Shown here one piece after another: positions 6,896 through 50,339 of a stretch of 64,000 bases of DNA (position 1 is the stretch's first letter; each line of letters opens with the position of its first letter). Origin of the DNA: Psilocybe cubensis (taxonomy: Eukaryota); contig CM039002.1 in the NCBI GenBank assembly GCA_017499595.2, forward strand, positions 2,170,001 to 2,234,000. Reading direction: 5' to 3'. Under the pieces are notes generated by a model. It saw nothing but the letters and a program-made list of their open reading frames with translations. It made no database searches and was not told where the DNA came from. Made by a program: the position numbers and the translations under genes.

Positions 6896-7336
6896 TTCTT
6901 CTTATCTTGTAATCGACCAGTAGTTGCTTGCTCGAAATGTCATTTTTCACATACTAATACTACACTGTACTGTATAATATGGTACAGTGGACTGGTATCA
7001 TGTACCACATGATATGGATTGAATAAATTCATTAATACACTGAATAACATGCCACTATACATGGTAACCTACATTGTACCATACTGTGTGCAATTCTCGA
7101 ATCTGAGGAGGTCTTACAGACACCCGTCACATGGGTGGGTCGGGTGTACCAAGATTGATACTAAGGTGTCCGACTTGGATGATCGGCCCCATGGTGTCCG
7201 ACTCAAACTGCAACTTGTAAGAGGAGTTGGTGCAAATTAGGTCAGAGGTTTGGAGTCACTGTCGTTCAACGTTGTGGATTATACATTGAACTCTGCACTA
7301 TTTTTTTATTTAAGAGCTATTCTATGTATGACTAGA

Positions 7337-11181: not shown

Positions 11182-13737
11182 TTAACTTGTCCTTTCACGA
11201 GGACGTCGGACCCGTTTACCCTCTACTATTAATGATTCTTCTACCTCCTTTCTTTTCTTTCGATTTGTGGGCGCAGGTATGGCAGGAGTCGGAGTCGATA
11301 CAGCAGCGGAAATGGGAGTTGAAGTCAATGCAGTAGTGGAAGCGGGAGTTGGTGCCAATGGAAGAGTAGACCCATGAGTTGGAATCAAAGGAAGTGCAGA
11401 AGCAGGAGTTGGAGCCGATGCAGAAGCTGACATGGGAGTCGGAGTCGATGTAGCAGCAGACGCGGGAGTTGGAGTCAATGTAGTAGCAGACGCGAGAGTC
11501 GGAGTTGATGTAGCAGCAGACGCGGGAGTCGGAGTCGATGTAGCAGCAGACATGGGAGTCAGAGTCGATGTAGCAGCGGAAGCAGGAGTTGGAAGAGTCA
11601 CTTCCCCTGCTGCATTGGTTCCAAGTAGCATGTCAGAAACCTGCCATGCATTACGAAGATCTTGTTGATTTTGCTCATACTCCGCAATTTCAGCAGGAGT
11701 TGTAGGTGGTTTGCAAGGTCGGGGTCGGGGGCGAGGCTTGCTGGTATGTAATTGAGTATGATCGGCATTGACTTCACCTGGTCTATTCAAGAGAACTTGC
11801 ATGTCCGATGGAAAAGGCTGCAAAGTAGTGGGAGTGGACTGATTAGCTGGTGTGACACCGCTAGTAGCAGGAGTTGCTGGTGTTGGAGTGCTAGTAGACT
11901 CGGCCATTATTGCTAATTGTAGCAATGAGATGAGGGCCTTGACATTGAAATCGGTAGACTCACTTCGCAAAGACGGGTCAATCATGCAATCCAAGATTAT
12001 GTTGGCATTGGGGGATGTTGATGTCTGCATAGATTCCGGAGTAGACTCAAATGTGATCAGACTTGATCCGCCCTGCATGTCCTCAATACGTGTCAGAGCC
12101 TTCTTTGATTTCTTTGATTTTTTAACAGGTGGCCGACGCTTGGTCTTTTCTGTGTCAACAGTACGAGTTTCATCAGGATACCATGTATCCTCAACGTCAT
12201 CTCCTTTTCTCCCCTTCTTAACCTTTCGAAACCTAAAAACTTGGCTTAGCGGAAATGTTTCCTGACGTGATCGGAGATGAGTGAACAAAGTGCGTAAGTC
12301 TTCAAGGTCAAGAAATCGGGGCCGTTTTAACTTGAAGCGGGGTGGCAAGTACTCTGGAGCAATAAACTTGGATTGGGAGAGCTCAATTGCCTCATAGGGT
12401 GTTTGCGAAGTGCGGCCATGTGTTGCAAGTTCTATTAAAAACTTAGTACCAGTAAAACTTATGGAAGTTCTCAATAGTATATACTTACTATAATTTTGTC
12501 CAAGATAAAGTCGTAGAAGTGACTCTAAATCTTTTCTATTGACCTTGGATGCATCAAAGTCTTGAGGCAGCATTGGGAATCCATCCGCGTCTTGATCAAG
12601 TATGAACATGTCGGATTTTGCCGTTACTTGCAACCCAGATGTTGCTCTTTCTTTTGCATTCAATAATCCGCGAACATAGGTACTTATTAGCCGCTTCATC
12701 TGGGTAACTTCATCTGGTTTTTGTTCTTCAAATAATGTTGAACAAACGCCAATAACACTGGCTACTTGATCATGACTGTGTATTGAATCAGTCGGAGTAA
12801 GTGAGTCGGAGTGAGTCGGAGTCGGTCGGAGTCATTATATAAGCAATATGAAAGCGGACTTGTGATTTCAAAACGCACACTTGGACTGACAACTGGCCAG
12901 TTTCATTAATCTGGCAAACAAATGTAATGCTCATTAATCCCATTTCCGCCCATTGCTGGATTGCCGCCTCATCTAGTGTCTTGAAAGCATACTTCCTTGC
13001 TTTCCTAAGCAAAACAAGTAAGCAATTAGGCCAATATTGTAATGAATTTGATCACTGACTTGCGTTTGTCCTCGTCGGAATATACCACTGAAGTATAATT
13101 TGATGCTTCTATGTCAAGCTGTCTCTTCTCGCGGTCGGACATTCGGGAAATAATGTTGCTCATTGCCTTCATACGGTTTTCAAAAACACCTGGTGTCCCA
13201 ACTCCGGCTGATTCAATTCCAAGAATGCTGGCAATCTCCTTGTAGACCTCGTCCCTTCTATTATACCAGAGTACAGTGGTACGTTTTAATTTTTTACCCT
13301 TTGTTGCAGCCTTTGTAAGCCGCTCCCCCCTCCAGTTGTTTCGAATCCATGCAAGCAGTTTCTTTGGGATAAAATATTAGATCCGACCATTGTAATAGAC
13401 ATATAGCCATACCTATTGTGTAATCGGGGCAAGTCGGGGCCGACAGTTGTTAATAAAAAATACAAATACAGTGTCCGACAAACACAATTACCTTTGCCTC
13501 CTCCTGCATAAACTCTTTACTACGGCTCACAACCCTATTTTTACTCCAGTGATTGAAAAGAGCAGGTAGTATTTCACATACTACCTGCTTACGGTCAAGA
13601 TTTGTCGACGCCTTGGTGTATTTGTCTTTGAATCTCTCAATAATTTCACGTTCATGGCGATCATACACCCTGACCAGTCTGTCATGAGCTCTAAACATGT
13701 CTTCCAGTATTGGATTTGGTGCTTCAGTACTGTCCAT
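11182..13737 (-). CDS. Multi-exon homeo/HMG-like helical protein, divergent from the transposase (outer gene C)
   Basis: Spliced product includes [66 protein letters not shown]...FRFRKV, collinear with gene 22794-25104. C-terminal 30-bp repeats and NLS-like KRVRRPRER. Confidence 0.7.
11400..11595 (-). repeat. About 6 x 30-bp coding tandem repeat ([10 protein letters not shown]), several units with GAGTCGGA
   Basis: gggagtcggagtcgatgtagcagcagac-like units on the + strand. Confidence 0.8.
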
Positions 13738-17914: not shown

Positions 17915-18232
17915 CACATAAGACAGTTTATTTATAACGTACATTACCTAAGATTTAATAATAAGGATATTACGTGAGACACGGTGGATTTACTTCCGCT
18001 ACCTAATTAGGAGATTAGCGTGATGTACGTGTGATTTAGCCTGGCAAATCATAGCGTACATGACGTGCCATTTAGCGCTAAATGGAGCCGCCGGGTGGCC
18101 TGCGGGATCCGCGCGTCTACCTACACGGAAGAAACACGGGCCGGAAATGAGCCGGACGGGTCCATTTGCATCCCGTGTATTGCAAGCAGACGGATCCGCT
18201 TGACCCGTGTTGTGCTGTCAGACGGACCCATT
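17915..18232 (+). repeat. Left terminal inverted repeat (318 bp), begins CACATAAGACAG
   Basis: Reverse complement of 33208-33525 except at 17980/33460 and 18038/33402. Confidence 0.95.
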
Positions 18233-18310
18233 TGACCCGTATCTTCCCAGAGAGGGAGGGATATTTGAGAGGTATTGCGAATCAATGAGCACAAGGGCTC
18301 CAAAAATAAT

Positions 18311-19453
18311 TTATTCATCTCTACCGGTATACAAATGCTTTTCCAAACTCGATTCAATCCCTGCCAGCCCAGCGTCAATTTCCTCCAGCGCATTATAAGT
18401 CAGAATTTCTGACTGCAGCTGATGCAGGCGGAGGTTCTTAAACGTTGTGACCTTGCTGTCATAACTATTGTCGCCGACGGAACTGTCGATTATTTGGTCG
18501 TATGTTGCCCGTAGCTGCTGCTCGGTATAATTCTAAAATAGTTGTCAGTATCTAGTGCTTGGTAATATCTGAGTGCATACATATAGAAAAGGAGGGTTAA
18601 AATATGCCGTCTGATCTGTCACATCCTTGAACTCAATGTCAGACTGGGTGGGAGGCGAACCGGGGTAGCCGCCCATGGAATCAAACCTGCCGTAGGTTCG
18701 AAAATAAGGGTTTTGAAGGAGCAGGTGGCATGCTTCAGGGGGTGGAGAATAGCGACCTTGCTTCCTCTCAGAGGAAATAGCTGGACGAGAGTCCATAATG
18801 ATTTTGTCGACGACAGACGTGTATGAAACATGTGCTGCCATCAACGGCGGAGCCACATCATCCCGGATGACAGGCATAGGTGGAGGATCCAGGGTATCTG
18901 GAATAACAGGCATAGGGGGAGGAGCCAGGGTAGGTGGAATGACAGGCATAGGGGGAGGAGCTAGGTTATCTGGAATGATTGGCATTGGCGGCGGAGCCGT
19001 GTCGTTCCGGATGACAGGCATTGGCGGCGGAGCCGTGTCGTTCCGGATGACAGGCATTGGCGGCGGAGCCGTGTCGTTCCGGATGACTGGCATAGGGGGT
19101 GGAGCCAGGTTAGCTGGAATGACAGGCATAGGGGGTGGAGCCAGGTTAGCTGGAATTACTGGCATTGGCGGCGGAGCCAGGTTAGCTGGAATGACAGGCA
19201 TAGGGGGTGGAGCCAGGTTAGCTGGAATTACTGGCATTGGCGGCGGAGCCAGGTCTTTCCGGATGACTGGCATAGGGGGCGGAGCCAGGTTAGATGAAAT
19301 GACTGGCATAGGGGGAGGAGCCAGGTTATCTGGAATAACAGGCATAGGGGGTGGAGCCAGGTTATCTGGAATGACTGGCATTGGCGGCGGAGCCAGGTCA
19401 TCCGTCCTTGCTGTGCGTTTGCTTTCCTTAGAGTTGCTAATATTTGAAGACAT
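18311..19453 (-). CDS. Proline-repeat protein with helical C-terminus (inner gene A), 2 exons
   Basis: ORF 19453-18581 with (LAPPPMPVIPxN)n; intron 18533-18580; last exon NYTEQQLRATYDQ...IDAGLAGIESSLEKHLYTGRDE*. Confidence 0.65.
18845..19398 (-). repeat. About 15 x 36-bp coding tandem repeat (LAPPPMPVIPAN)
   Basis: ggcataggggg(t/a)ggagccaggttagctggaatgaca and ggcattggcggcggagcc units on the + strand. Confidence 0.9.
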
Positions 19454-19938
19454 TGCTGATGCTCAGAAATCAATTAAAATTTACTTGAATTAATGCCATT
19501 AGTCTTACATTTTATAGGTTTTACGGGAGGAGGTTCCTTCAGTTTTTCAAGAAGCCTGGTAAGATTGTTGAGACTGGTGTAGTCAATGGGGGAATTTTTG
19601 CTAGAGGTGGGAATAAAGTTGTAGGAGGACATACAGTCCAGAAAGTGCAACTGGGTGGGCTTGTTTATATATCTCACGGAATACAATACTATCCGAGGAT
19701 TCTCCATGACACGGAAATAGATTCACCCGTGTATCGAACTTAGCAACTTTTGCACAAACTGGATCTGGTGAAGAAATCACATGACTCAGATTGTACATGT
19801 TTGTGTATGGTTTTGTTTTGCGGGACCGCTTTTTTTTAGACTTTTTTTAGACTAACTCCAACCACGATCACCACCCTCACGTTCTACCGTGCCTCACCCA
19901 TTTAACGCGTCTTCCCCCATAAAAACACGCTTTTTTCA

Positions 19939-20642
19939 ATGGCCGCTTCATCTTCCACCACCGCCACCTTCGCCCAACGCCTCGCTGACTGGGAAAAAAA
20001 GTTTACCGAGTGCTACCGCAACGGTGAAAGCGCGTTCAACGCTGAGTTGGAGCAGCTTTACAGGGACTTGGTAAGTTCTCAATTTTATAAGATCATGACT
20101 TGCTCAACAAAAAAAAAAAAATTCCAATAGGTTCCATTGTGTCAGGAGCATGTCAGGGACGCCGCCCGCTTCCGGCTCATTGACTATGTTGCGAGCCCCG
20201 TTGTCTACTCGTACAAAGTCATCCAGGGCAAGGACGGCGAGAACATCTACAGGTTTGAGGTCGACTGGGCGACGCTCAAACATCAAGTCGCCAACTTCAA
20301 GGCCTACCAGGAAGGCCAGGAGGCACAGAGGAAGAGGAGGGAGGAGGAGGAGCAAGAGAAGAGGAGGGAGAAGGAGGAGCAAGAGGAGGAGGAGAGGCAG
20401 AGGGTGGAGGAGAGGAGGAAGAGGGAGGTGAGGAGGAAGAGGGAGGAGAAGAAGAAGAGGGAGGAGGAAGAGGAGAGGCAGAGGGAGGAGGAGGAGGAGA
20501 GGCAGAGGGAGGAGGAGAGGAGGAAGAGGGAGGAAGAGAAGCAGAAGGTGGAGGAGAGGAGAAAGGATGAGAGGAGGAAGAGGGAGCAGGAGAGGAGGAC
20601 CAGGGAGCAGGAGAGGCAGAAGGCGGAGGAGAGGAGGAAGAG

Positions 20643-20676
<34 letters not shown>

Positions 20677-22515
20677 ACAGACGAGGAGAGGAACAAGGAG
20701 GAGACGGAGAAGAGACAGGCCGAGAAGGGCAAGGGCAAGGCAGTCGAACCCCCGGTGGAAGACGGACCCGTGACAGACGCCCACAAAGACAAGGGCAAAC
20801 GGAAAGCGGCGGACCCCGTGGAGTCCATTCAGTTGGCTCCAGCGGATTACAGGGGCCCACGGACAAAGAAGGGGGAAATCATTCCCCACATTACCGCCTC
20901 CAACATGCCCGGTCACCCAGCGTACAGGGAGAAGCTGGAAAGATTGGCGAAGTCCAAGCAGGGGAAATTCAGGAGCAAGGCGATCATAGGAAGCCACACG
21001 GACGAAGACGCGGACGCGGACGTCGACGAGGACGACGAAGGCGATAACAAAGGGGCACCGCCTACCACCCCCACTGCCACCCCCACCCGGAAGATGCGCA
21101 CGCGTTCCGTAAAGAAGGACGCCGAGGACGATGTCCCCCCCATCAGGAAGGCGCGGTCGAGATCCCAGAAAGTGCGCCAGGTGCCAGAGGGGATGGTGGA
21201 CATGGTGGAAAGGTGCACGGCATGCATCAAATTCAAGGTGCCATGCTATGTCAAGGGGGAGACAGGCACTGAGCCTCTTGTCCCCGTGAAGCACCAATCT
21301 TGCGAGTCTTGCAAGTCTCGCAAGATCCACTGCAGCTTCTACCCGGGGCGCAACACCTTCGTGGGTCAATTTTTGATGACGCCACTGGGAAGCTATGGGG
21401 AGGCGTTGAAGTTGGAGGAGGGAGAAGATGTTCCGGCGAAGGGGAAGGCCGGGGAAGGGTCGTTCCCCGAGGATGTGGGAGAACTGCTTGTGCAGCTCTT
21501 TGAGCGCCAAGGCAGAATCATGGAACGGCTGGACGGGTTATCCGCGTCCATAACGGCGATTAATGCACGGATTGCGACGTTTGCCGAGACGAACTTGGCG
21601 GTGGAGAACAGGATGAAGAGCATCGAGGACGGCATCCAAGAGGTGAAGGCCGAATGGACCATGGCCAAAGAACAAGTGGCAGGAAGCACCTCGCTTTCCG
21701 TCACGATGTTCAACGACATCACCAAGAGGATCAACCACGTCCGAGATGTGGTCGACGATTTGCTGGAGCAGGATGAACAAAGGAATCCCGCCCCCAAACA
21801 GGCAGCAGGACCCTCCAAGACGGAGGTCGAACAAGAATCGGGTCCGTCGTGGACCCGTGAACCCACCTCTGTGCCACAATCCCCAAGCGCACCACCACCG
21901 CCAGCACCCCTCCCTTCCCCACCTCCACCTCCAGCAGCACCCATTCTCCCTTCCCCTCCTCCACCACCGCCAGCACCTGTCCTCCCTTCCCCTCCCCCAC
22001 CTCCACCCGCACCCGTCCTCCCTGCCGTGTCTGCGCCACCAACAGCGCTATTCTTGCCCGGTTCGACTCCGGAAGCGCCTTCGCCCCCCCCAGCTGGCCG
22101 ACCCTCGCTCCCACCGGTACCACCCATCCTTTCCCTGTCTCCACCACCCCCTCTCCCAGCTCCACGTCCTCGAAGTTCGACGTCAAAGGCCGCACCGTTG
22201 TCAAAGGGTGCACCATCGTCAAAGGCCGCGCCATCGTCAAAGGCCGGCCCATCCTCAAAGGCTAAGCCATTGTCAAAGGCTAAGCCATCCTCCAAGGCTG
22301 GGCCATCCGGGAATGGACACTCATCGGAGTTGTCTGATCCCTCGGACAGCGACGAGGTTGAAATTGTGGAGGAGGAGGATGTTGAGATCGTGGCGTCCAC
22401 GCTGCCCGCGTCGAACATAGCCACAAAGACAAGGGCTGGACGAAAGCGAAAGGCGGAAACGACTCTGGCTGAAGCATCGCGCTCGCCCAAAAAATCCAAG
22501 GCCCAAAAAAAGTAG
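19939..22515 (+). CDS. Zn2Cys6-like cluster protein with E/R/K charged helix, coiled coil and Pro-rich tail (inner gene B), about 838 aa
   Basis: Exons 19939-20070 and 20131-22515 join in frame. C-x2-C-x6-C-x18-C-x2-C-x6-C at 21214-21333; C-terminal RKRK...PKKSK NLS-like patch. Confidence 0.75.
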
Positions 22516-22793
22516 TGTATTTCAATTCTTTGTAACTTTTTTTTGGTCTCCTTTTTTGCCTGTCATATATTACATTGCTCACATCCCTATACAATTTTTT
22601 CATCATTTGGACTGTATATAGTTTTTACTCTCATGTGCTCATCTGTTTTATACCTCTCCCAAAAAGTAGCACTTGATGATTTTTAATGAACCCCGCTTTC
22701 TGTTTTGATTTTGTGTGAAAACATGTTTGAGAAACATCAAGATAAGAATAAAAAGCATCACATTCAATAGGTATCATGAATCTACTTCAACAG

Positions 22794-25104
22794 CTAGGCT
22801 TTCAAAGTTTTTTTTCTTTGTCTTTTACCTGCTACAGCAAGCAGACTTGCTTCCTGAAGTGCTAAGGCATCCGAAGTCACATTCCTGCGGGCCCGTGTTT
22901 CATCCGTATCTGGACTTGTTACTGTCTCCACAAAGGCATCACAAGTCACGTCCCTGCCGGCCCGTGTATTATCCGTGTCTTGGGTTGTTCCTGTTTGGAC
23001 TCCATCTTCTTCCACTGTGTCAAGTGGATCTGAGTAGGGCTTTGTTCTTTTCCTAGGTTGAATCCTTCTAGTTGGTTTTGGCTTAACTGGGGGGGGTACA
23101 GAACTCTCTTCATTGGGTCCGTCCATTTCCGCCGTTCCGACATATGGCTTTGTTCTTTTTCTTGGCATAATCTTTCTAGCTGGCTTGGGAGGCGCCTCCT
23201 CAACCTCTGGAGTTGGGCTGGATGATGGATTGACAATTGTTGGGCTGGATCTACTTGGTAGAGAGGGTGGCTCGCTAGATCTTGAAGGTGCGTCGGTAGG
23301 AGTCTCATCCGTCTCTGGCGTGACTTCAAATCTGGCAGTAGTGCGTGGCATCGCGGATGCCGGACTGCCCCGTCCATTATCAAACTCTGACAGATTGGAT
23401 GATTCAGAGTCGCTTGAAGATTGGGTTTGAAGTCGTATAGCTTTTTGCCTCAGCCGACGTTTGGTTATGGCTGCAGGAGGTGGAGGTATCGGGTGGGCTT
23501 CTAGGCCGTCAAACAAGTTGGACGGATAGAGAGGTTCCATAATGTCATAGCCATTTCCAAAAACCTTTGAGAATTTAAAGGGGATGTCTCCTTGCGCTTG
23601 ACGGTCCCTCCATAGCTTGAGAATTGCAGAAGTTGACTCCAGGCGGAGCCGGCTCGGATCCGTCACGGGGATTGAACTTGGCCAATACTCTGGATCAATC
23701 ATTTCTGCAGAACGCCTTTCAAGAGCATCCCAAGGAACACTTGAACCAGGCCTATCCTTGGCTAAAGCTGTATACATAGTTAGCAAGTTTGTTGAGGACA
23801 TAGACAAATTACACACCATAAACCTTGTTCATGTAAATTCTAATAATTGACTTTTGCGCATAAGCGACTTCTCTCCCAGTTGAGCCATAGATAGGACTAG
23901 GTACTATTGGAAATCCATTGCTGCTAAACTTGAGGGATTTTTCATGAAACGATGCATCTGGCAGTGCTGGATTGGCCACACCCTTCTCTATTTCTGAAAT
24001 GTGGACGAGGTATTGAACAAACGCTCTGCGAAAAGCGGCCAACTCGGATGGAAAGAGTTGCCCAAAGGAAGGAATTCTGACATTGTCGAGTGCTAGATCG
24101 CTTGTCTGGGTCCTTCAATGCCCATCAGTCAACATTAATACGGGTCAAATTATTCCGCCGTGAATGCTTACGGCGGAAACTTTATCCGCCGTAGGGTGTT
24201 TACGGCGGATAAAGTTTCCGCCGTAAGCATTCACGGCGGAACTTGTTCATGCCGTGTTTAACACTTACATTGAGTATTCGATTTTACCCTCAATATCATA
24301 ATGCCCCTCAAAGGTAATGGACCTCATACCCATTCTCTGCCACTTAAGTTTCTCCATTTGTCGAAGTATTTTTCTGCCTTGCCTGGCAGCAGTCCTGCAG
24401 ATGTCAGATTGACGGCGGAAACAAGTTCCACCGACTCACTTTGCCTTCATTGATTTTGAAACACCTTTCTTATTCCATTCCTCGAGGATCTCCATGAACC
24501 TGTCCCGCTCCTCCTGAGTCAATCTGGCCTCAACCTGCTTACGTCCTTGTTGATAAAACTTCATCCAATCTTTACTTCCACGAGCAGCATTCCCTGATAG
24601 AAGCGCAACCTCGGAGTCAATCTCTGCCGACTTCTCCTCACGGAATACCGTCTGAAAGGTTATACGGGAGTTCAATCCTTCCAATTTTACACCAATTCGA
24701 TTTGACGCATGGTTTCTAAACCAATTAAAAATTCGCTATTGTGATGGTTTATGTGTGTAACAAAATTTTCAAAGAAACAACGAGCTCACATGCTTCTTCA
24801 CCTTCCATTCTTTGTGTAGTTGCTTATCTTCCTTCCTAGCACGTCTAGAGTATCTGTGATCCCATGTAGCTTGCAGCTCAGGTATGACAGTGTTCTGTAT
24901 GTAGTCTGCTTTGGATGACTTTGATGTATCTTTGTAGGGCTGTACATGCTTTTTCAACACGCGCATTTCCTTTGTGGTCCATATATTTGATTCTTCCGGC
25001 GGAAAGTCACCCTCTGCCGTCTGTCCGCTTCTGGGTCCGTTGTGGGTTGTGGCATTTGCGGTGGAAGGAAGCGGATCCGCGTCGGGGGATGCATTGGTGG
25101 GCAT
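22794..25104 (-). CDS. Multi-exon homeo/HMG-like helical protein, divergent from the transposase (inner gene C)
   Basis: Spliced motifs RIFNWFRNH, RLTQEERDRFMEILEEWNKKG, WQRMGMRSITF, NGFPIVP, VPWDALERRSAEMIDPEYWP, WRDRQAQGDIPFKFSKV. Homologous to 11182-13737. Confidence 0.72.
24153..24241. repeat. Perfect 41-bp inverted repeat with 7-nt loop inside an intron
   Basis: TTCCGCCGTGAATGCTTACGGCGGAAACTTTATCCGCCGTA - GGGTGTT - exact reverse complement. Confidence 0.95.
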
Positions 25105-25983
25105 AATTGCAGCGATGTAACAAGTAGCTTATCAATGAGTATCTGTGTGATCTAGTCAAATCTCACGTCATACGGAGATAAAATAAGCTTCCGATCATAC
25201 TAAATGAATGATGTGATGTCATATTTTTCCCAATCAGGTAATCCCGCTTCATAGTCGGCCACGATGATCAAAGCATGCTGGTCGCTGTCACATACATTGA
25301 CCTCATGATTTTGCAATAGTTCCCTCTGCACTCAATCAATAAACATGAAATTTTGTAAACATTTAGCGCTTTATATAAAGATAATCTTACAAGGTTTTAA
25401 ATTCTTGTTAGATGGCTGTAAAGATACAGAAACACAAAATTCAAATTCACGTCTTCTCACCCAAAACTTGTGAAACCCAAAACGGCAGTCATCTCAGAGA
25501 CCATGAGAGGTATTCAAATGCATAATTTTTTTCAAAAAATATAATGATCCCAGTGAGCTCATTTTGACACATTTTCTAGTATATTGAGAATATCTCCTTA
25601 AATACGAGGATTCACATTCTACAAAAAATGTCATTCGGTAGCTATTAAAAATATCTTTCATATGATATACGCCGGAGGAATGAGGGGCCAGCCAGTGAAA
25701 AGATATTTCAAAAACACTCCAAAGTGTGGTTCTGAAAGGGTCGTTCTGCATCATATTGTACATTTATGATGGGATCACGTCCATTTTGTGCATCTCTGGA
25801 TTAAGTTTTGTTCATAACATTTCACTCACTCATCCAAATATGCTGCAAGATAGATCATATGAAAGCTATTTTTCTCCTCTTTAAAACGGCATAATTGAGG
25901 GAAATTTATCTACAGAAATAAACATGTTATACTACATTTAGATCTGCGCTCACAGGCTGTCAGACTCTTTGTTTCCAACATCC

Positions 25984-28900
25984 ATGGGCTTCAAGAAAGT
26001 ACCTGATAGGGGATTGGATGAGGAGTTTCCCAATGTTCGGGAGGCCTCCTGGTCTAGTGGGGCCAAGAAACGAAAGAGAGGGCGGCCGAGGATCCACAAA
26101 CTTCCTGCAGAATCATCATCAACAAACCTCCCTCAAACAACGACTTACTCTTTCCAAAACCATGAACACAACATTCTGGAAGAAGAAATACCTCATTATC
26201 CGGGAGATCTAACTGATCAGCAGGTACTTGATAACCTGAGACAGCTAGATGACGACAGAACGGGAGGAAAGGTATGTTTTAACATGTTTTCAGTAGAATG
26301 ATCAGGATGACTTTACCTATCCAGTCTCAAAATGATTACCTGAGGGAATGGCTCCCGAAACGAGAGGTGTATCTTGGAACAATGATTGGAGGAGAAGCCC
26401 CGGATCCGGATCTGAATGGACGGTGTCAGCAATGTCAAGGAATGTCTGGAGTGTGGAGATGTTGCCAATGCTTTGGCTCTAGAATTTTGTGTTCTGAATG
26501 CCTGCAAAGAAACCATCAATTTACACCTTTCCACCGCGTTGAGAAGTGGACGGGTCTATATTTCCGTCCGGGAGCTCTGTGGGAAGTGGGTGTCAAGTTG
26601 TATTTGGGTCATAATGGGAAGCGGTGTCCTTATCCCACGGATCCGAGCCATCTAGGATGCGACGGCGGAAACAATTCATCCGGGAGTCATGGGCACGGCG
26701 GAAACAATTCGCCCATCTTTGAGGATGAACACGGATTGGATCTGGATCCGCTTCCTGCGAGCAATGACCAAGAATCCTTTACGGCTCAGCTTCTGGCAGA
26801 CCCGGAGGTACCCCATTTGGTTGAGCTGGACGATGGAGACGATGAAGACGATGATCTATTCGAGGAAGTCGATACAACCTATCTGGACCAACCTCGTCCA
26901 AAGGCAGCAGACAACAATGGAATTCCTTTCAAGGCAATTGTGCACACCTCCGGAGTCCATTATCTGCCCGTGCGAACATGCACATGCCGGTCCGTCCGCC
27001 TTCCGTCTATCGATTTACAGTATCTGGAGATGGGATTATTTGCAGCCAGCTTTGAAAACGTTCAAACTGTGTTCACAGTTGAGGTCCTTGAGGACTTTTG
27101 GATGGACAACCTCGAGTGCAAAACGTCGGCTTATCAGTATTACCAAAAGTTGCGAAGACTGACTTCGCCAGCGTTTCCAAAAAAGGTGCTGAACCGCTAT
27201 CGTGAATTGAGAAGGCTTAGTAGAGAATACAGGGACCTTGTCCTGAGACGACAATACGGAGAAGGGCATACAAGAGAAGCGGTGGTCCCTTACTATCATC
27301 ATTGCCATGATTCATCACCAGAGAGGATGGGTATTAATGTATCTGATCCAATTGACGGCGGATCTGATAGTCCGTCTCAAGAAGTCGGAATGTCAACGGA
27401 CCCGTCTCTGGGACACGGCGGATTAGATGGTCCGCCTGCACCACACATGACGCGGACCGAGGATCATCCCAAAGTTGAAGATAGGAGAGGGAAGTTGGCC
27501 TTATTCTGCCCCGCCTGTCCACAGCCTGGAATAAACCTACCTGATACCTGGATTGATGATGCTGACAGGCAAGTTTTAGTTATTCTTCAAGGGTGACTGC
27601 AATTAACAGCAAATAGCAATCTGCACATACGTAGTTATGTTGCAGATGGTAATTTCAAAGCAGATCACCTCAATCAGAAAAACGAGGGAGACGATGTTTG
27701 GTTGAGCGTTGGAGAAGGATACATGACTGCTCCGGGCCCATACAAGGAGCACATCAAGGAAGCAATTTCTCTTGCTCCACGTTATAAACGGGTGCGTTAT
27801 CTACCATGATTTATCTTTCACGGCGGATGCTTACGTTCCGTGTCACAATCTTCCACGGCGGATGCTTCCCTTCCGTGTCAAAAAAATCTTCCACGGCGGA
27901 TGGCTTATCCTCCGTGTAAAAAAATATCAGGAACAAACATGTCATAACTACCACACCCAGAAAGCTGAAAACAGAGTCAGCCCGGGTAAGAGAGTACGTG
28001 GAATTGGGGCACACGCTTGCGCTAGGCACGGATGCTTCTGTCCATCCAGCGTTGTTGATTTTGACAAAGGCGAAAAGCAGATGCACATGGATTGGTCTTT
28101 GACTCAGGCCAGGGAAACTACCAACACACAGGGAATCACAAAACATTTGGAAATCTACGATATAAACTGTCAATATTGCGTTAACTTGGCAAGGCGTCTC
28201 TCAGAGTCCACAAAAATGCATTGGCCACCTTCTGTTAAAATGATTTTTGCAATTGGTTTATTTCACGTCCACGGGCACAAGACGGAATGTCTTTACAACT
28301 ACGCATCCACCTATGTCCCGGGTGTGGGAATCATTGACGGAGAAATCCTGGAGCCGTTGTGGTCCGTGTTAAATGACACATCCCGGAGTACACGTTCCGC
28401 TACCACTGCCCATCGAGCAGAGGTTTTGGACGACCACATGGGGGATTCCAACTGGAAGAAGACCATTAATATGGCTGCAACAATTGCTGCAAAGTTCAAA
28501 CGGGCACGGGAACAGTCCGGAATCACAGACCGATTTTATAGGGGTATCACGGATCAACAAGATTCCGGGCTCATCAACACTTGGGAAGATGAAATTTCAA
28601 AAGCAGAAGCGGACCGAGAACAAGGTGTGGCCGACGCTGTTGGCAAGGTAATGGCAAGCAAAGTGAAAACGGCTGCTGGACGCCAAGAAATTGAATTGCA
28701 TCTTTCAAATATGGAACTTACATCTAATGGTGCTACTGGAAAGGCAGCATGGATATCATCCGGCTTAAAACTGGAGCAAGCGCAGTACGATTATTTCAAT
28801 TGCATCCTACAGAATTTAACATGCTTTTAGATTGGAGCTCAGGGACCATGTCAGAAAGCTCGGAAAGCATCCTTCCACCGCGCAGAAACTTGACTTGGTC

Positions 28901-29906
28901 AATAAACGTCGCTCCATGCGGACCCGCGTTGAAGCCTTCTGTCGATCCGCTATGACCTTCATGGGCGAAGATGTCTTGGAGGATATTCAAGGGGACATCG
29001 CTCCCATACTTGACTATGAAGTCAGTGACAACGACGATCCTGATCTTGGAAATGTCAACATTACCCGCGCGGATCCGGAACGACAGCCGCTTCCGTTTCC
29101 CTCCGCCGTCAAACAAGATTTCTTTGACGGCCTTGACGCGGGAACAAACCTCATTTTAAAAGGGCTTCGCAAACTTGAACTTCAAATAAGACATGGCCAC
29201 GCAGAGGACTGTCTGGAAGCGGTCCGGTCAGCCTTGATCCAGCTTTCTTGGCAGTATAAATATCAGGTTTGGACCGCCGACTCCGTCTATATGGGGACTC
29301 GTGCTTGGGATGGCGTCAAGCTTTTGAATGCTTCCTGGAAATTGCACCGGCGACTCTACAACACAAACCGTCAGAAGATGATCTATTTATCTGCTGGCGT
29401 GCGAGACGAGGATAATATTCGGAAACAATATCCCATTCTGCAAGTCCATGATTGCAAGCATAGTAATGCCGTGTCGGATCCGAACATTCGCGGAGGAAGC
29501 TCGGACCGTCTAAGTTGGATTTGGAGATCCCGTCAGGGCCTGGACAATGATAATCAATTATACGTTAATGAGTGTGAGTACTGCTATTTGTATTTCTAAT
29601 TTTTTTCTCAAGGGCTTCTTAGTCTTTAGGCTAAACTGGCTCCGCGCGCGAGCTCAGAGGAATAGATGGCAAGAGGAGCTGGCCTTGACAAAAAAGGAAA
29701 TGGAATGGACTGTCAGATTTTATGTGTATATGGCAAAGACATGGCGTGCACGGCATGATTTTGTTCCTGACAGGTTAGTTGGTCACAGGGCAAATGCTCA
29801 AAAGCAGATTGCCATGTGGAATGATCTGGGGCGGGCCGCGGATAAGGTCTTCCGTCAAATTAACCCGGAGTATCCGTCCGTGTGGAGATTTATAATTACA
29901 GATTAA
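25984..29906 (+). CDS. KDZ transposase with CxC2 cysteine cluster (inner element)
   Basis: WRCCQC...CSECLQRNHQFTPFHRVEKWTG, VHTSGVH, CPACPQPGINLP, DGNFKADH, CARHGC, KGEKQMHMD, YDINCQY, FHVHGHKTEC, DGEILEPLW, WLRARAQRNRWQEE. About 6 exons including a GC-AG intron at 27569-27616; frame intact. Confidence 0.94.
27818..27920 (+). repeat. 3 x about 33-37-bp tandem repeat (CACGGCGGATG...TCCGTGT) in a transposase intron
   Basis: Lies within intron 27792-27930. Confidence 0.85.
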
Positions 29907-29950
29907 CCAGTTCTTTGAACATTCTTGTTGTATCCCATCTCGTTGAATTC

Positions 29951-31575
29951 ATGCACTTACCGCGGCTTTTTAAACCTCCTGTCGAGGACGAACATCATCT
30001 CCTTACCTATGATGAGCGACGTGCTCTGGCCAAAGTTCATGTCCATATTTGTGGTGCACGGATCCGTGCCGGATACCGTTTGTTCATTGCAAACGGAGAC
30101 TCTGTTTCCTCCGTGTGTCGCCAAAAATGGATGTATTTGCTCGACCTGGAGGTGGTAAGACAGTAATTTTGAACGATTATATCTTGTATTGAGAACTGGT
30201 CGTCAGGCTATACTGCTGAGAGTACTCGGATACTGCTATGTCAATGGATTCCAAGTCAATATTCCATTTTTTATATCAGAAATTCTCAATCAGAGCGTAC
30301 ATGCCGTTTTGAACCGAACTCCCCACCATCAAGCTGTTCTATTTGAATCTCTAAATCAAAGCTGGTCAGCATGGGAAGATGATGAAATTTTAAATCAGAC
30401 CAAGAGCTGGGGATATTGGTGGAGGGACGGATTTGCTGAAGGCGATGAGTGGCAAGTTGCCTTTGTTACCGTTGAATCGCAAGCAAGAGAATTTTGGAAC
30501 AAGGTATGTTTTTTTATTGCTGTGGATTATATCTGATTTGCGTCCTTCCCACCAGGTGGTTCTGCCTGAATACCAACAAGAGGTACTCCGGCTAAATAAT
30601 CAGAGGAAAGAAGCTAAGGAGGGCGCAAGTTCATCTACCTCTGGGCCTCCAAGAAATCAGGAAAACAATCCCAAGGGCAAGGGAAAGGCGGCTGAACGGA
30701 CATCCGTCCCCACCTCGGGGAAGCACGGATCCGCGTTGACGGGAAAGCACGGCTCCGCGTTTTCACCGCCCACGGGGAAACCCAATCCGCCGACCCGTGT
30801 TGCAAACACGCGGGATGAAACATCCCCAATTGCAATTTCTGACCACAGACCGCCCTACTGTCCCCGCTGCGGTCAGCCTATCCTAACGGGCGTAATGAGG
30901 GAGTTGGCTCACCTGCGCCGGAATGTGGCGGACAAAATGAAAAATGCCCATAAAGCAGTGACTACTTCTTCGGCCGCCTTGGGCAGATATTCTGTATTGG
31001 AGAAGATGTGGATTGACTCTAAGGAGCACCCGTTCTCTAACGGCAAGGGGCTTTCAGCCAAATACAAATTTCAGCATCCCGTTCACCCTTCTCCTGACAG
31101 TTGGGGCGCTATAACGGCTCAAGCCCGGTCCTTCGAGGTCTCAAAGCTCAAAGTCGCTTCATTTTACATCAACGACATTTTTTATTCTTTTATTGCCGTC
31201 AAGGAACTACCTTTTCATCCACTCTGGTATCATTCGCCACCCTCCAACACTGCAAATATTCATCTCCCAACAGATACTCTGCCTACTCCCGGTTCCGTCA
31301 GCCCTCCGTCAAATGCACACACCAGCAATGCCTTCCTTTTTAACGCAAGGTCAAGACCTGTTTTCCCGGGAGAAGAGGATGATATTGATAGTACGTCCGA
31401 TACCACTGAATCCTCTACACCAGCTACGTTTTTAGAGCATCTCGCACAGGACTTTGAAGAGGAGGCGGATGAGGAGTCTTCCGCCGGTAATACGACGGAG
31501 GAGTCAGATGCTTCCGGTAACTCGGAAGAGCTTAGCGAGGACGTGTCGGAAACACCCTGGGATGAGGAATCTTAG
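29951..31575 (+). CDS. Acidic-tailed CxxC protein downstream of the transposase (inner gene E), 3 exons
   Basis: MHLPRLFKPP...RQKWMYLLDLE | AILLRVLGYCY...GYWWRDG | ...CPRCGQP...QARSFEVSKLKVASFYI...D/E-rich tail. Homologous to the split outer gene E. Confidence 0.65.
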
Positions 31576-31708
31576 TTGCCCACCTCTCGCACAGGACATC
31601 AAAGAGGAGGCGGATGATGCCTTTTCCGCCGGTAATACGACGGCGGAGTCCGATGATTCCGGTAACCTTGGAAGAGCTCAGCGCGGGCGCGTCGGAAACA
31701 CCCTGGGA
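31441..31708 (+). repeat. About 123-bp direct duplication (31441-31562 and 31586-31708) of the end of gene E
   Basis: ctcgcacaggac...gaggaggcggatga...ccgccggtaatacgacgg...gtcggaaacaccctggga occurs twice. Confidence 0.88.
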
Positions 31709-31802
31709 CAGAGAATTCTGGTTGTTCTGTAGCTTTCGTACCGTTTTGTTTTGGAAATATAAAAAAATCTTCCCCAAACCCAACTTCCAAGTCAAAAACT
31801 GA

Positions 31803-33082
31803 TCATATTTCAAAATCAAAAGTGTTGGTGGCCGGTAAATTTGCAAAAAGATCGTACGTAGTAGACCATCCCGCCTCTTGGACTCCCAGCTCTTTAAATA
31901 CATTCCTACGCATGTAATAGACTATGACTGCCCTATCTCCCTCGCACACCGCGCCGTGTTGAAGCAACCTGCCGGTAATTGCAACAAGGGTCATGGGATC
32001 ATACTTGTACCGAAGTCCAAGGCCAGGAAGCTCAAGCCGTCCGTGTTCACCCTTCCCAAGTGGCATCAAAAAATCGTACCATGAGTAGCATGACCCATTA
32101 TCCCGATGGTACGGTGTATCTCGGTTGCTGATGGCGGTCATGACTCCAAAGGGCGAACTCCATATTGTGAGAATTTGCTTCAATATTTCGGCCTTATGGA
32201 CGAGCTCCGGTTCCGCAGCAAGCCGTTGAAGAAATTTTATTCCCGCCCGGTACTGCTCGGGGTGTATAATGCTCAAGATGGCTCCCAGCAAAGCCGAAGA
32301 TGTCATCATGTCTCGTATAAACTCCTGTCCAATAGGATTACACAAGTCCAAGGAGACCTCAAGCGGGTTGGACGTCTGAGGAAAATATGAGGCAGTATAA
32401 TACTTAGCAAACAAGTTTCTCACCTCATGGCCTTGCTGAAACCATGCCGGGGAAAAGTTAAGATTTCCAGGTTGAAGCCAACCTGGCTCATGTCGAAAGT
32501 AACTGTCATTGACCCTCCAGCTTGTGGCCAAAGGTGCCGCCTTGTGAATCATTGTTTCAATATCCCGTAATGAATTCCACACACTCTCCTGTTACTCTTT
32601 AGAACGCATAATATAGGAATTAATCGGTCCGTTTCTAAAACTCACCACCCTTGTCTCTGACAAAATACCTGGCAGGTACCACACCAATATGTTGCCTGCA
32701 CTATCGATTACAGTTCCGGGCAGGGTTTGGTACTGTAACGTGGAATGCACCGGAGGAAACTGGTCTTTCAGGCGAGCCTCAACGGCAGAATTCTGACCCG
32801 TGCAACGTGCGCTGAGATGGGTCAAATATTCTTCTGCATCCCACGTCATATATTCTGCCATTCACACATTATTTAATCTCAATTTTCAAAGCTTATTGAT
32901 TGCATACCTTGATTTTCAAATGCCTGCAAAATCACCTCCACAGCTAGATTGCACTCAAACATGGTCTCAGCACTGAAGTTTTCCCGGATTTGATTAGGCA
33001 GTTCTGCATGCCAAAGACGACTAGCTATCTTTGCCTTCATGTAGTTTGAGAGGGATTGGGTTAGCTCAAAGGCATAATCCAT
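31803..33082 (-). CDS. TET/JBP-family 2-oxoglutarate/Fe(II) nucleic-acid dioxygenase, 4 exons
   Basis: Fungal TET/JBP motifs GNILVWYLPGIL, SPAWFQQGH, LSIIHPEQY, ISNRDTPYHRD (HxD), LELPGLG, LLQHGA (distal His) and DRAVIVYYMR (2OG-binding Arg). Confidence 0.9.
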
Positions 33083-33207
33083 ACTATCAGGGTATGTGGA
33101 AAGGAATTTGCTGCCAGTATAATCTATACACCTTATTACATATATTAACGGTCATCCAATGTACGATTCAAGGCGGATATTTGTTGGAATACAGAAGCGG
33201 ATGGATG

Positions 33208-33525
33208 AATGGGTCCGTCTGACAGCACAACACGGGTCAAGCGGATCCGTCTGCTTGCAATACACGGGATGCAAATGGACCCGTCCGGCTCATTTCCGGC
33301 CCGTGTTTCTTCCGTGTAGGTAGACGCGCGGATCCCGCAGGCCACCCGGCGGCTCCATTTAGCGCTAAATGGCACGTCATGTACGCTATGATTTGCCAGG
33401 CCAAATCACACGTACATCACGCTAATCTCCTAATTAGGTAGCGGAAGTAAATCCACCGTATCTCACGTAATATCCTTATTATTAAATCTTAGGTAATGTA
33501 CGTTATAAATAAACTGTCTTATGTG
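33208..33525 (-). repeat. Right terminal inverted repeat (318 bp)
   Basis: Reverse complement of 17915-18232; ends ...CTGTCTTATGTG. Confidence 0.95.
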
Positions 33526-35269: not shown

Positions 35270-35665
35270 AACATCCCGCCGCCGCCAACATCCCGCCGCC
35301 GCTATTCCGACCCCAATTACAACATCCCGACACGGATATCCCGACCATTTCATCCTGAAACCATCTTTCAATATCCGACTCCAATTCCAGTATCACAATC
35401 CATTCATTCCAACCCCGAGACGCCAACTTGAACATCCCGCCACCAACATCCCGCTGCCAATATCCCGACCCCGATTACAACATCCCAACTGTCAACACAA
35501 ATTTCCCGACCAACCCATCCCGACCCCATCCCGACCCCATTCTAAAATGTCGACTCCGATTCCAATATTCCGACCCCAGTATCCCGACCCATTCATCCCG
35601 ACCCATTTATTCCGACCCATTCATTCCAGCCCTGATGCCAACATTCCGACGCAATTTATCCTGAC
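35270..35665 (+). repeat. Non-coding array of about 13 same-strand CCGAC motifs with decayed CCAAC/CTGAC variants
   Basis: Repeated (a/t)(t/c)ccgac(c) units separated by A/C/T-rich spacers. Confidence 0.8.
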
Positions 35666-36686
35666 CGCATCAATGGCGGTGCACTAATAATTACAATCCA
35701 AAACTGGTCTATAAACCAGATGCATTCAATGAGCCCATATAGTGTGGCACATTGTGAGTTGCCTTTGCGAGAATTTTGGCATTCGATGATTCGATGAATT
35801 TATTGAAGCCCTATTATACAGTACATTGTAAGCTCCACTAGTCCACTTCTTATTCCACAATGTAGCATGCCTACCTGCATTTTTTTAATCTGGTCATCTG
35901 ATTTTTCAATCACGTGCTATCTGTCAACCAACCAGTAAAACGCCAGATAACGGGCATCAGTTATGGTAAGCTAGCTGAAGGTATAATGTAAATCTAGTGG
36001 TATATGTTATATATTCTAAGATATGGATACTATAATGAGGTATAACTATATTTCTTCCTGTAGCATCATGTCAGAATTATATCAACATTATACCACAAGA
36101 TACCATATACCATCAAATTATCATTTTTCGCAGTTCAGTTTAAGGCATGGTATAATATTATACCACCCCGAGACCACATATACCACATTACCCCTACTTA
36201 CAGTGCTTATATTGATCATATCATACTTTCCCCGAATCCCTGATGAGAGGTGTATTAGTATCTTACCGTAAACATTATTCCGGATTGTAGAGTTTGTTTT
36301 TTTGTTTCTTTTTTTGCTTTCGTGCTTTGTTTTGTTCTTCATCGCTCTCATTTTTTCTCGATTGTTTTCGTGTAATACCATCTGCCCACGTTCCCACTTC
36401 GCTTTCTGTTTCTCATGTTATTTCGCTTTCTTGTCCTCGCTGTTGTAACATTATAGTTAGATGCCTTGCTCTCATCGTTTGTGCAATTGACTTGTCTGCT
36501 GTTTTGGTTTCTTTTCGAGTGTGCGAGTGCGAATTCGGTTTGAATTGTTCAAAGAAAAGTAGTAGGTCCTATAGGCCAGCAAAGCTACAAGGTACAGACA
36601 CAGAGTGTTAAAACAAGATCAACTAAAAGTGAAATGAGTGTGGTACAAAGGTTGTTTGAGAAAAGTAAATTTCAAAAGCTTGAAGG

Positions 36687-48086: not shown

Positions 48087-48485
48087 GTCTGATGTAAACG
48101 GTTATGCGAGGTTCGAGGGACTTTACAGCGACGGATTAAGCTGCACCGAAGGACGTGTGACGGTGGAAGGCTTTAAAAGCCCAGTGCTGAGTGTTGTCCT
48201 CGTCTTGAATGTTTCTTGCATAATTTTAAACATGAACTCTCATGCTGTAGAGACAATTGGCACATGCTCACAGAAATCTTAATAAAGCTTCCGTTCCAGT
48301 GGTAGCAGTAGTATTAGATCTTTGGGGGTAAGTTTTACAATGGGTAATCAGTGTATAATGGTAGTGTAGGTAAAAGATGATAGAAGAGGTCCAAAGATGT
48401 GTTTATAGTACAAAGAGCAGCGCGGAACCGGATAAGGGACAAAAAAAGGTCTGAGTAGTGGGCATAAGGTGTGATGTGGCGCAGA

Positions 48486-50339
48486 CTACTGGGTGGGACA
48501 GTCGGGGCCATGTCCGTAATGATCGTCATCATCGTCATCATCATCGTCTTCCCAGTCGTCCTCGTCGTCGCCAAACTGCGATGAAAAGCCATGGTCAAAG
48601 AAATTATGACTGTGCGGGACAGACCGAGCACGCACATCGACAATGTCGCTCTCCTCAAAGTCGGCCTCATCGACAATCTCAGGAAGTGGGTCCACATTCT
48701 GTCGTTTTGGTGGGAGGATGGCTTCAACAGACTATATATTTCTTCAGCGAGCCTATTTGTGTAGAGAAAAATCATGGTACCCACCTTGACATCGACGGTT
48801 CGTAACCATTCTTGATCAGGCATTTCAATGTCGAAAATGACATAAAGGTCTCCTTTTTCTTGAGGGTGTTTATAGACAGGCATTCCTTCTCCTCGAATCA
48901 CAATAGAATCTTGAGGTTTGATAATTTTTCCACGCGGCGAGGTCAGGCTGATACCTCGGCCATCTAAATGAGTGAGTATGATGCGTGAAAAACCGAGCAG
49001 AGCTTCTGATAGGGTAATCGTAACATGGGTAAGGAGATCGTTTCCTGATCTTTCAAAGGATTCGTGAGGGTTGGTCTTCAGAATGAATATGACATCTCCA
49101 GCAGGGAGTCCAGGCTGTGGAATTTGGTAAGCATACACATAAATTCAAAGGTTGCACATACACACCTCTTGATCTCCAGCACCAGCTAGCACAATTCGCT
49201 GACGATCTGTCATTCCCTTTTCTATAAAGATTTCTTGGCGAGTTTTTTCATGAATCGTTTTTTCACCCTTGCATTTTTTGCACCTGCAATATTTGATCAA
49301 CTCTAGCGCAAACACTCTATTGAGATAGATGTCGCCGACCTTTCTTTTTCTTTTAACCTTTGACCAGAACCTCCGCAATCCGTGCAGCGAGCGCGCGAGA
49401 GCCCATAGGCACCTGTTGGTAACTAATCCATGTTAACGTTTTTAAAAACGAACCAGATACTATCACTACACACCCTTGTTTTGACGTGTGTGCTACCTGC
49501 ACCATCACAAGTAGAACATGGCTTGGGTTTCGCATTTCCCCGTGCCCCAGAGCTACATATCGAAACAGGTCAAAGTCTAATATAAAACAGAAGGGAAAAA
49601 TACAGTACCCTTTACATACCGTACACACAACCTCTTTTTCCATGTTCATCTTCACTGACTTTCCATTATACAGGTCTTCCAACGTCACTTCATGTGGTAT
49701 TATGGAATCTTGGCCCGTGCCCCTTCGATTTCCTGGAGCATCCGGTCCGAAGTCGAATCCAAAAGATGGGTGACCACCAAAAAATTGGGCAAAAATGTCG
49801 GCAGCATCCATGTCAGGTCCTCCGCGACCACCTCTTGAGAGACCATCCTTTCCATGCATATCATATATTGAACGTTTTTCTTCGTCAACCAAGACTTCGT
49901 AACTAAATGAACAAATGTAAGTGATTGGTTGTCATTGTCATTGTTAAGAACCACGCACGCGGCAGCCATCTCTTGAAATTTCTGTGCGGCATCTGGGTCA
50001 TTGATATTTTTATCCTATAATGTGTTCGGGATTAACGTGGCTCGTCTTTTTCAAATAAACTTTGCGCACGGGATGATGTTCTATGGCCTACGAAGCAATG
50101 AATGAGTCTACTGAAACCAGATCAGTCCAACGAAATATGTATGCACCTTTTTTCGGTAAGCCTTTTTTATTTCCTCTGTAGCAAGGTCATGAGAGCATGC
50201 AAGGATTGTACGTCGAGATGTTAGGTTACCTGTGGTGGCCGTGAGCGAGACGCCGAGCAATTCATAAAATTCTGTTTCAATAGGCACTGTAAGATGTTGA
50301 TTAGCGAAGGCAGGAGATGAGAAAACTACTATACGTACT
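48486..50339 (-). CDS. Type I DnaJ/Hsp40 co-chaperone (Ydj1/Xdj1-like) with CAAX box
   Basis: J domain (EFYELLGVS, EIKKAYRK, HPDKN), LEDLYNGK, CxxCxGxG repeats, TLSEALLGF, C-terminal CPTQ. Confidence 0.9.

Follow-up and report, generated by a model that had tools for sequence, protein, structure and literature searches.

A palindromic array of an element-specific dyad in an old gene C intron of a TET-carrying Kyakuja transposon of Psilocybe cubensis is structurally unstable and not conserved

The window analysed in the present study is a stretch of 64000 nucleotides (nt) of Psilocybe cubensis DNA (assembly GCA_017499595.2, contig CM039002.1, positions 2170001–2234000), in which a TET-carrying Kyakuja (KDZ) element is nested in a second Kyakuja element. 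One gene of the inner element, hereafter named gene C, contains a perfect palindrome (24153–24241) in its third intron. We found that the palindrome is composed of units of an inner-element-specific motif, that this motif resembles the repeats inside the terminal inverted repeats (TIRs) of the same element, and that the palindrome is unstable and lacks conservation. Our preferred reading, to which we give about an even chance from sequence comparison, is that the hairpin consists of copies of the element's own TIR-type dyad, a presumed binding-type site, arranged as a palindromic array that changes rapidly, can be dispensed with and lies in an old intron.

The inner element was delimited to 17915–33525 (no strand) by its target site duplication (TSD), termini and domains. 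A 7-bp TSD, CCGCAAT, is present on both sides, the termini are of the CA..TG type (CACATAAG.. and ..CTTATGTG), and the TIRs of 318 nt are 99% alike. The transposase contains the CxC2 (PF18803, E 5.1e-21) and KDZ (PF18758, E 3.1e-37) domains, and a TET/JBP gene is found at 31803–32591(−) (PF12851 Tet_JBP, E 3.6e-19). The transposase domains, the TSD with its termini and the TET/JBP gene together assign the element, as far as sequence features define the group, to the TET-carrying Kyakuja transposons. Gene C of this element is located upstream of the transposase gene and is transcribed away from it in a divergent arrangement.

The arms of the palindrome (24153–24193 and 24201–24241) are 41 nt each and 100% complementary, with a 7-nt loop, AGGGTGT, between them. 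Arm comparison, motif count and folding bore out the initial annotation, which had described a perfect 41-bp hairpin with six alternating TCCGCCGT/ACGGCGGA units; on this feature, which has no strand of its own, the ACGGCGGA copies were located at 24154(−), 24170(+), 24185(−), 24202(+), 24217(−) and 24233(+). Exact ACGGCGGA was found in 20 copies in the window compared with 1.26 expected, a number reached in 0 of 100 shuffles. Pattern search showed that the palindrome and its imperfect flanks form a run of four consecutive ACGG-N14-15-CCGT dyads (24140–24255, no strand) with starts at 24140, 24170, 24202 and 24233 and a spacing of 30–32 nt. When folded as RNA, the intron gave a minimum free energy (MFE) of −92.6 kcal/mol compared with an average of −38.3 for its shuffles (z −15.8), 0 of 200 of which folded as well, and its fold as DNA was −57.6 (z −16.1). 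The hairpin occupies only part of the intron, 27 nt being left on one side and 40 nt on the other. As the stem is perfect and very stable, it might be cut from the pre-mRNA by Dicer-type enzymes, and the resulting small RNAs would either down-regulate gene C or target the element for silencing; a likeness to the microRNA precursor mir-2147 was detected below threshold (23.6 bits, E 0.16). However, this score is far under the Rfam gathering score of 80, with no Rfam membership, the short forms of the palindrome described below retain a 9-bp stem only, and other sites share only 11–14-mers with the hairpin and are thus too short for trans targeting, so that a hairpin RNA appears very unlikely.

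Gene C of the inner element (22797–25104, minus strand; five exons, no Pfam family) was modelled by mapping P0004, a 668-residue hypothetical protein named as Psilocybe cubensis in its source, on the DNA, which gave introns of approximately 54, 45, 156 and 49 nt. Intron 3 (24113–24268, minus strand, GTAAGT..AG; gene model and P0004 homology) is 156 nt long and phase 2, and its junction, ...SITFEGHYDIEGKIEYS-M|TQTSD, falls in the 14th codon after SITF. The annotated P0004 is continuous over this junction (...KIEYSM|TQTSD), and the tested exon of 93 residues, downstream of intron 3, was 99% identical to it. The same mapping located intron 2 (24394–24439, minus strand, ~45 nt), which contains one imperfect pair, ACGGCGGA-N7-TCCACCGA. 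By homology, gene C of the outer element (11182–13700) has a phase-2 intron of 103 nt at 12776–12878 (minus strand, GTGCGT...AG), likewise in the 14th codon after SITF; between 12790 and 12832 this intron carries a direct array of GTCGGAGT. Proteins of the gene C family matched the outer gene in 69 tblastn pieces and bridged 12776–12878 without loss of residues; residues 176–214 of P0043 aligned to 12994–12878 and residues 215–456 to 12774–11962, unbroken at 214|215. Via these proteins, the inner and outer junctions were found to coincide in the alignment to within 2 residues. Both splice sites are based on gene models and homology, which support the orthology of the two introns (same family, codon and phase) and agree with the initial annotation both on the phase and codon of the inner intron and on a phase-2 intron with the GTCGGAGT string in the same codon of the outer gene.

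A search for the dyad ACGG-N11-15-CCGT revealed 19 sites in the window compared with 2.48 expected, and all 19 were inside the inner element with none in the 48 kb outside. When the inner element was shuffled alone, 0.63±0.79 dyads were obtained, with a maximum of 4 in 500 shuffles. Three dyads are located in the left TIR, two in the right TIR, four in the hairpin region and three in a transposase intron (27793–27931), whereas seven are single (19711, 20799, 27355, 28337, 30058, 30093 and 32782); six that were unused in defining the pattern (19711, 20799, 28337, 30058, 30093 and 32782) all lie within the inner element. The spacer is specific, with 16 dyads at spacers 10–14 and 0 at 5–9. Repeat and pattern searches placed subterminal dyads at 18156, 18190 and 18222 in the left TIR (17915–18242, plus strand; the 318-nt repeat extends to 18232) and at 33232 and 33264 in the right TIR (33208–33525, minus strand). 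Thus the dyads are near both ends of the inner element and are family-specific, two features of transposase-binding subterminal repeats. Their spacing is 32–34 nt in the left TIR and 35–38 nt in the transposase intron (plus strand), where pattern search found three 35–38-nt units with CACGGCGGA-N..-CCGTG dyads at 27820, 27855 and 27893. Furthermore, the 13-mer ATTTGACCCGTAT is common to the innermost left-TIR dyad and, inverted, to the palindrome flank at 24138–24150.

An unbiased ranking of 8-mers gave CGGATCCG (10 sites, none elsewhere in the window), ACGGACCC and CGGCGGAA on top for the inner element, and GAGTCGGA and GGGTCGGA, likewise with none elsewhere in the window, for the outer one. 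The pattern G[AG]GTCGG[AG] was found in parts of the outer element in 33 of 33 cases, including a subterminal array (35306–35611) and the gene C intron. As all 19 dyads lie in the inner element and all 33 of these sites in the outer one, the earlier statement that each family carries its own motif held, and more broadly than the initial annotation had described. Since the motif is family-specific and is also found in the TIRs, the most likely explanation of the motif as such is a role in protein binding.

A serious, if clearly less probable, alternative is that the palindrome and the tandem arrays are neutral by-products of slippage and fold-back in unconstrained intron DNA, with no protein reading them, and that the spread of the motif reflects mutational history or composition. 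Consistent with this, the arrays differ between copies and strains and are absent from relatives, and the outer intron array is a simple 10-nt direct repeat without a fold (z +0.51), one 12-mer of which recurs in a (GAGTCG)n-like repeat within the coding sequence of the outer gene C. Because that array is a direct repeat without a fold, the two gene C introns do not correspond to each other in structure; the fold of the transposase-intron array is weak (z −2.39). However, a neutral origin leaves unexplained 19 spacer-specific dyads with unrelated flanks, in coding exons and both TIRs and with none outside, as well as CGGATCCG at 10 sites with differing flanks.

The palindromic octamer CGGATCCG is located at 18191, 23655, 25072, 26401, 26638, 29070, 29475, 30059, 30726 and 33242. 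Its sites have differing flanks, and the four checked in gene C and the transposase open reading frame (ORF) are in frame, reading GAT CCG (Asp-Pro). A 13-mer, ACGGATCCGAGCC (T-D-P-S), is common to gene C and the transposase gene, and this, together with the in-frame CGGATCCG sites, suggests retention of the motif at the DNA level within coding sequence. In-frame ACGGCGGA pairs were also observed at 26655–26710 and 27350–27425, in each case within a linker of the transposase N-terminal ORF that is poorly conserved; the second linker is ~60 residues longer than in the protein of the outer element. A specific placement of ACGGCGGA in introns was considered and rejected as significant, as 10 of the 18 element copies are intronic but occupy only three independent places. 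The CpG observed/expected ratio is 0.80 in both elements and 1.5–1.9 in the arrays, values that are not decisive on methylation.

Four public contig sets (X1, X7, X11 and X13) were aligned to 22600–28100, of which X11 and X13 had no cover of 24072–24255. In X7, one 866-nt contig at flank depth joined 24152 to 24216, skipping 63 nt, with 9 nt fitting either side. The depth of the X7 hairpin bin was 215, equal to 327.5×121/184, and matches the expectation for the short form, indicating that the X7 assembly carries the short form only. In X1, the contig set that best represents this DNA, two joints were observed, 24152>24216 (depth 345) and 24169>24233 (depth 325), with flanks at ~1040–1090. These joints correspond to two different losses of 63 nt, each by deletion between a pair of direct repeats of 9 nt, TTCCGCCGT or ACGGCGGAA; each short form retains one 26-nt unit, the 8-nt spacer being opposite in orientation between the two, and only a 9-bp stem is left. 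The transposase-intron array varies as well, with a two-unit copy-number variant in X7 (skip 27879>27919) and, in a relative 80–90% identical, 46 other letters instead of the 134-nt array. Even within its own family the palindrome takes more than one form, and it is structurally unstable. The long form is the likelier parent, because the reverse would require a 63-nt insertion that happened to form a perfect palindrome. Element contigs were deeper than those of the diverged relative (~1100 compared with 25 in X1, and ~330 compared with 64 in X7), which suggests that the element is present in multiple copies and has been active recently, although depth in contigs is a poor measure.

The palindromic shape could also point to an unrelated miniature inverted-repeat transposable element (MITE) or foldback element inserted in the intron. 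We regard this as scarcely credible, since no TSD is present (flanks ..GGTCAAATTA, ending ..AAATTA, compared with CTTGTTCATG.., beginning CTTGTT..), the deletion forms are not clean excisions, the units are the inner element's own motif, and no second copy of the hairpin occurs within the 64-kb window. In addition, the X1 hairpin bin, with a depth of 1782 compared with ~1100 beside it, gave no sign of a high-copy repeat.

Relatives of gene C were collected by scanning metagenome contigs with a gene C alignment, and 29 loci encoding relatives were obtained, 25 of which include both flanking exons according to hidden Markov model searches. A phase-2 intron at the same codon was present in all 25, in 22 as determined by script and in three (L011, L012 and L013) by reading; L012 was mis-modelled by the script and L011 and L013 were without a script intron, and all three were read as a 50-nt phase-2 intron, GTAAGACC...ACAAAG. 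These introns are 40–75 nt long with an MFE of −2.5 to −10 kcal/mol and represent ~10 distinct sequences or lineages. Arrays or hairpins in the orthologous intron were found in 0 of the 25. Dispersed CpG-rich 8-mers were observed in some of the loci, with CCGCGGCA occurring nine times in L018 and seven times in L016 (shuffle maxima 7 and 5 respectively) and CCCGTCGG six times in L008 (shuffle maximum 5). A dispersed signature 8-mer above 40 of 40 shuffles was seen only in these three loci and not in the other eight tested.

These results bear on the proposal of the initial annotation that this intron serves as a conserved platform for cis-regulation or binding, loaded by each KDZ family with its own motif. 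The proposal draws on the presence of an own-motif array in the same intron of two diverged families in one genome. However, a conserved intronic regulatory element would be expected in the orthologous intron of related families, and the comparison with other families, named beforehand as one that could overturn the proposal, found no motif cluster in this intron in the 25 relatives. Within its own family the palindrome is variable too, being down to one unit in other assemblies. Moreover, the inner KDZ transposase intron also has an array, whereas the outer counterpart at the orthologous place is plain (~58 nt), and the probability of chance coincidence is roughly 0.1–0.2, 2 of an estimated 10–15 inner introns having a large array. 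As the intron position is found in 25 of 25 relatives but its content is plain, the platform proposal did not survive and a shared platform is quite unlikely. Judging by the relatives, the position of the intron is ancient and its content is not.

The preferred reading, a dispensable array of the element's own dyad, would accommodate these observations as follows. The dyad ACGG-N11-15-CCGT, here in the form ACGGCGGA-N7-TCCGCCGT, may have been amplified locally into a palindromic array, the same type of site forming the subterminal repeats inside the 318-bp TIRs and being scattered over the rest of the inner element. The array lies in the old conserved phase-2 intron, where extra fold-back DNA would be tolerated. 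With slippage at either pair of direct 9-nt repeats (TTCCGCCGT or ACGGCGGAA), 63 nt would be lost and one 26-nt unit would remain, in either orientation. The dyad would be the recognition site of a DNA-binding protein encoded by the element, either the cysteine-cluster region of the transposase or the gene C product, and the intronic cluster would be an extra internal binding array, dispensable and with a fast turnover.

The gene C protein family has 280 representatives at E ≤0.001 and 46 at ≤1e-10, and it appears in the protein atlas only as unnamed Basidiomycota clusters. Divergent placement of gene C beside a CxC2/KDZ gene, as in the window, was also found in L008, L018 and L024 (three of nine loci scanned), where a CxC2 ORF is located upstream on the opposite strand of the gene C relative. 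Comparison with Pfam gave nothing at cut-off, the best match being GTF2I (E 0.013) in one relative, and the gene C profile matched nothing in the PDB below E 0.02. A model of the core (residues 40–435) had a predicted local distance difference test (pLDDT) score mostly above 90. In a wide structural search with this core, two GTF2I domains came out on top (Z 7.4 and 6.8; 89 and 91 residues), the best covering 89 of 90 residues with a root-mean-square deviation of 3.9, and HMG boxes matched residues 128–196 (Z 5.2–5.4), although all of these fold matches are below the tool's safe level (Z <8). The gene C product may therefore be regarded as a candidate DNA-binding partner protein of Kyakuja elements, on the strength of modelled folds.

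The sub-threshold Z scores are one of several points that weigh against our reading of the dyad array. Foldseek gave no match for the gene C core model at E ≤0.001. The dyad pattern was defined after the sites had been inspected, and its counts are inflated by tandem and palindromic copies, leaving ~10–12 independent sites. The tetramers ACGG and CCGT are themselves enriched 2–3-fold in the inner element (10.8 per kb compared with 3.2–5.9), and by our estimate the actual tetramer counts lead to an expectation of about 2.3 dyads rather than 0.6. The repeat of the TIRs is not exact ACGGCGGA, as only the variant ACGGTGGA is present in each TIR. The direction from long to short form, likelier as it is, is a parsimony argument only, and the X1 short forms might in theory have arisen through skipping of the hairpin during library preparation, an artefact indistinguishable from deletion in contigs.

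A bolder extension, which we consider unlikely, is that the CpG-containing dyad acts as an address code over the whole Kyakuja element, read by an element-encoded protein that steers the transposase and/or TET/JBP to the element's own DNA. The code would be written in the subterminal repeats, the intron arrays and, through codon choice, the coding exons, as with ACG GAT CCG (T-D-P), which is found in gene C as well as in the transposase gene. The gene C product would be a candidate reader through its predicted GTF2I-like and HMG-like folds. If this were true, the element would be kept unmethylated and mobile, and the intron palindrome would be a high-density landing pad in the reader's own gene, with feedback.

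The outer element has its own CxC2/KDZ gene. Its putative ends, at ~6961 and 35830, are marked by a 22-nt imperfect inverted repeat (6961–6982 and 35809–35830), and a target duplication matching these ends was looked for and not found. Motif search located its right subterminal array at 35306–35618 (minus strand), with at least eight G[AG]GTCGG[AG] copies (35306 to 35611), mostly GGGTCGG[AG]AT. Dense GGGTCGG[AG]AT units on the minus strand were observed throughout the right subterminal region at 35270–35627, and three units only at the left end (7130–7205). Near the left end of the inner element, a 36-nt tandem repeat of 15.5 copies (18846–19402, 82% matches) has GGCGGAGCC in every unit and lies inside open frames of both strands. 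Long purine-rich and proline-codon-rich tandem repeats are also present in the inner element at 20318–20692 and 21892–22308, inside a 794-codon open frame without a Pfam match (20131–22515, plus strand). To the right of the elements, host genes encode a DnaJ C-terminal domain protein (48335–49144) and a homologue of splicing factor 1/branchpoint-binding protein with SF1-HH, KH and zinc-knuckle domains (53145–54338).

Characterisation of the KDZ/Kyakuja transposons, which are large elements active in fungi, has barely begun. The present analysis provides candidate sites that can be synthesised, ACGG-N11-15-CCGT for one family and G[AG]GTCGG[AG] for another, and together with a candidate DNA-binding partner encoded beside the transposase they make self-recognition by a TET transposon testable. 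It also provides a natural example, in an apparently young and multicopy element, of a long perfect palindrome decaying via two alternative deletions.

Cut-and-paste elements have subterminal repeats that bind their transposases, such as the 12-bp TnpA sites of maize En/Spm and the AAACGG hexamers of Ac. The dyad of the inner element resembles these in being a short, family-specific CpG motif found in both orientations near both element ends, and in forming arrays of the same type. Unlike En/Spm and Ac, however, this element has large clusters deep in its interior, ~6 and 10 kb from its left end and in introns of two different genes, single sites occur in coding exons, and one cluster is now a perfect long palindrome; the binding sites here are predicted ones. 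Long perfect palindromes are fragile, deletion-prone DNA, and the gene C palindrome behaves similarly, its centre being lost between short direct repeats at the hairpin base in two registers (63 nt, 9-nt overlap). It differs from the usual fragile palindrome in being made of transposon signature sites and lying inside a spliced intron. With mirtrons and intronic microRNA hairpins it shares a stable intron hairpin, but unlike mirtrons it is flanked by 27 and 40 nt of intron and has no Rfam membership.

A further comparison is with the TET-carrying Kyakuja elements described in section 3.2.1 of Kojima 2025 (PMC12730594), which have a 7-bp TSD, 5'-CA..TG-3' termini, a KDZ transposase and a TET/JBP gene. 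The main text of that paper makes no mention of subterminal repeats, hairpins or Psilocybe, and its three mentions of introns concern gene prediction only; its Table S1 has no entry for Psilocybe or cubensis. The consulted parts of PMC12730594 and PMC11343200 gave no account of arrays in the introns of KDZ elements or of sites at which these elements are bound, and, among titles and abstract openings, the literature on Psilocybe cubensis transposable elements contained nothing on Kyakuja. The Kyakuja-1_AuPo consensus listed in Table S1 of PMC12730594 also begins CACATAA and, as read by eye, has its own GGGTGGGCC-type motif repeated near its end. Like the Kyakuja elements of section 3.2.1, the inner element has the 7-bp TSD, the CA..TG termini, the KDZ transposase and the TET/JBP gene, but unlike the two Laccaria families described there, which are without TIRs, it has TIRs of 318 bp.

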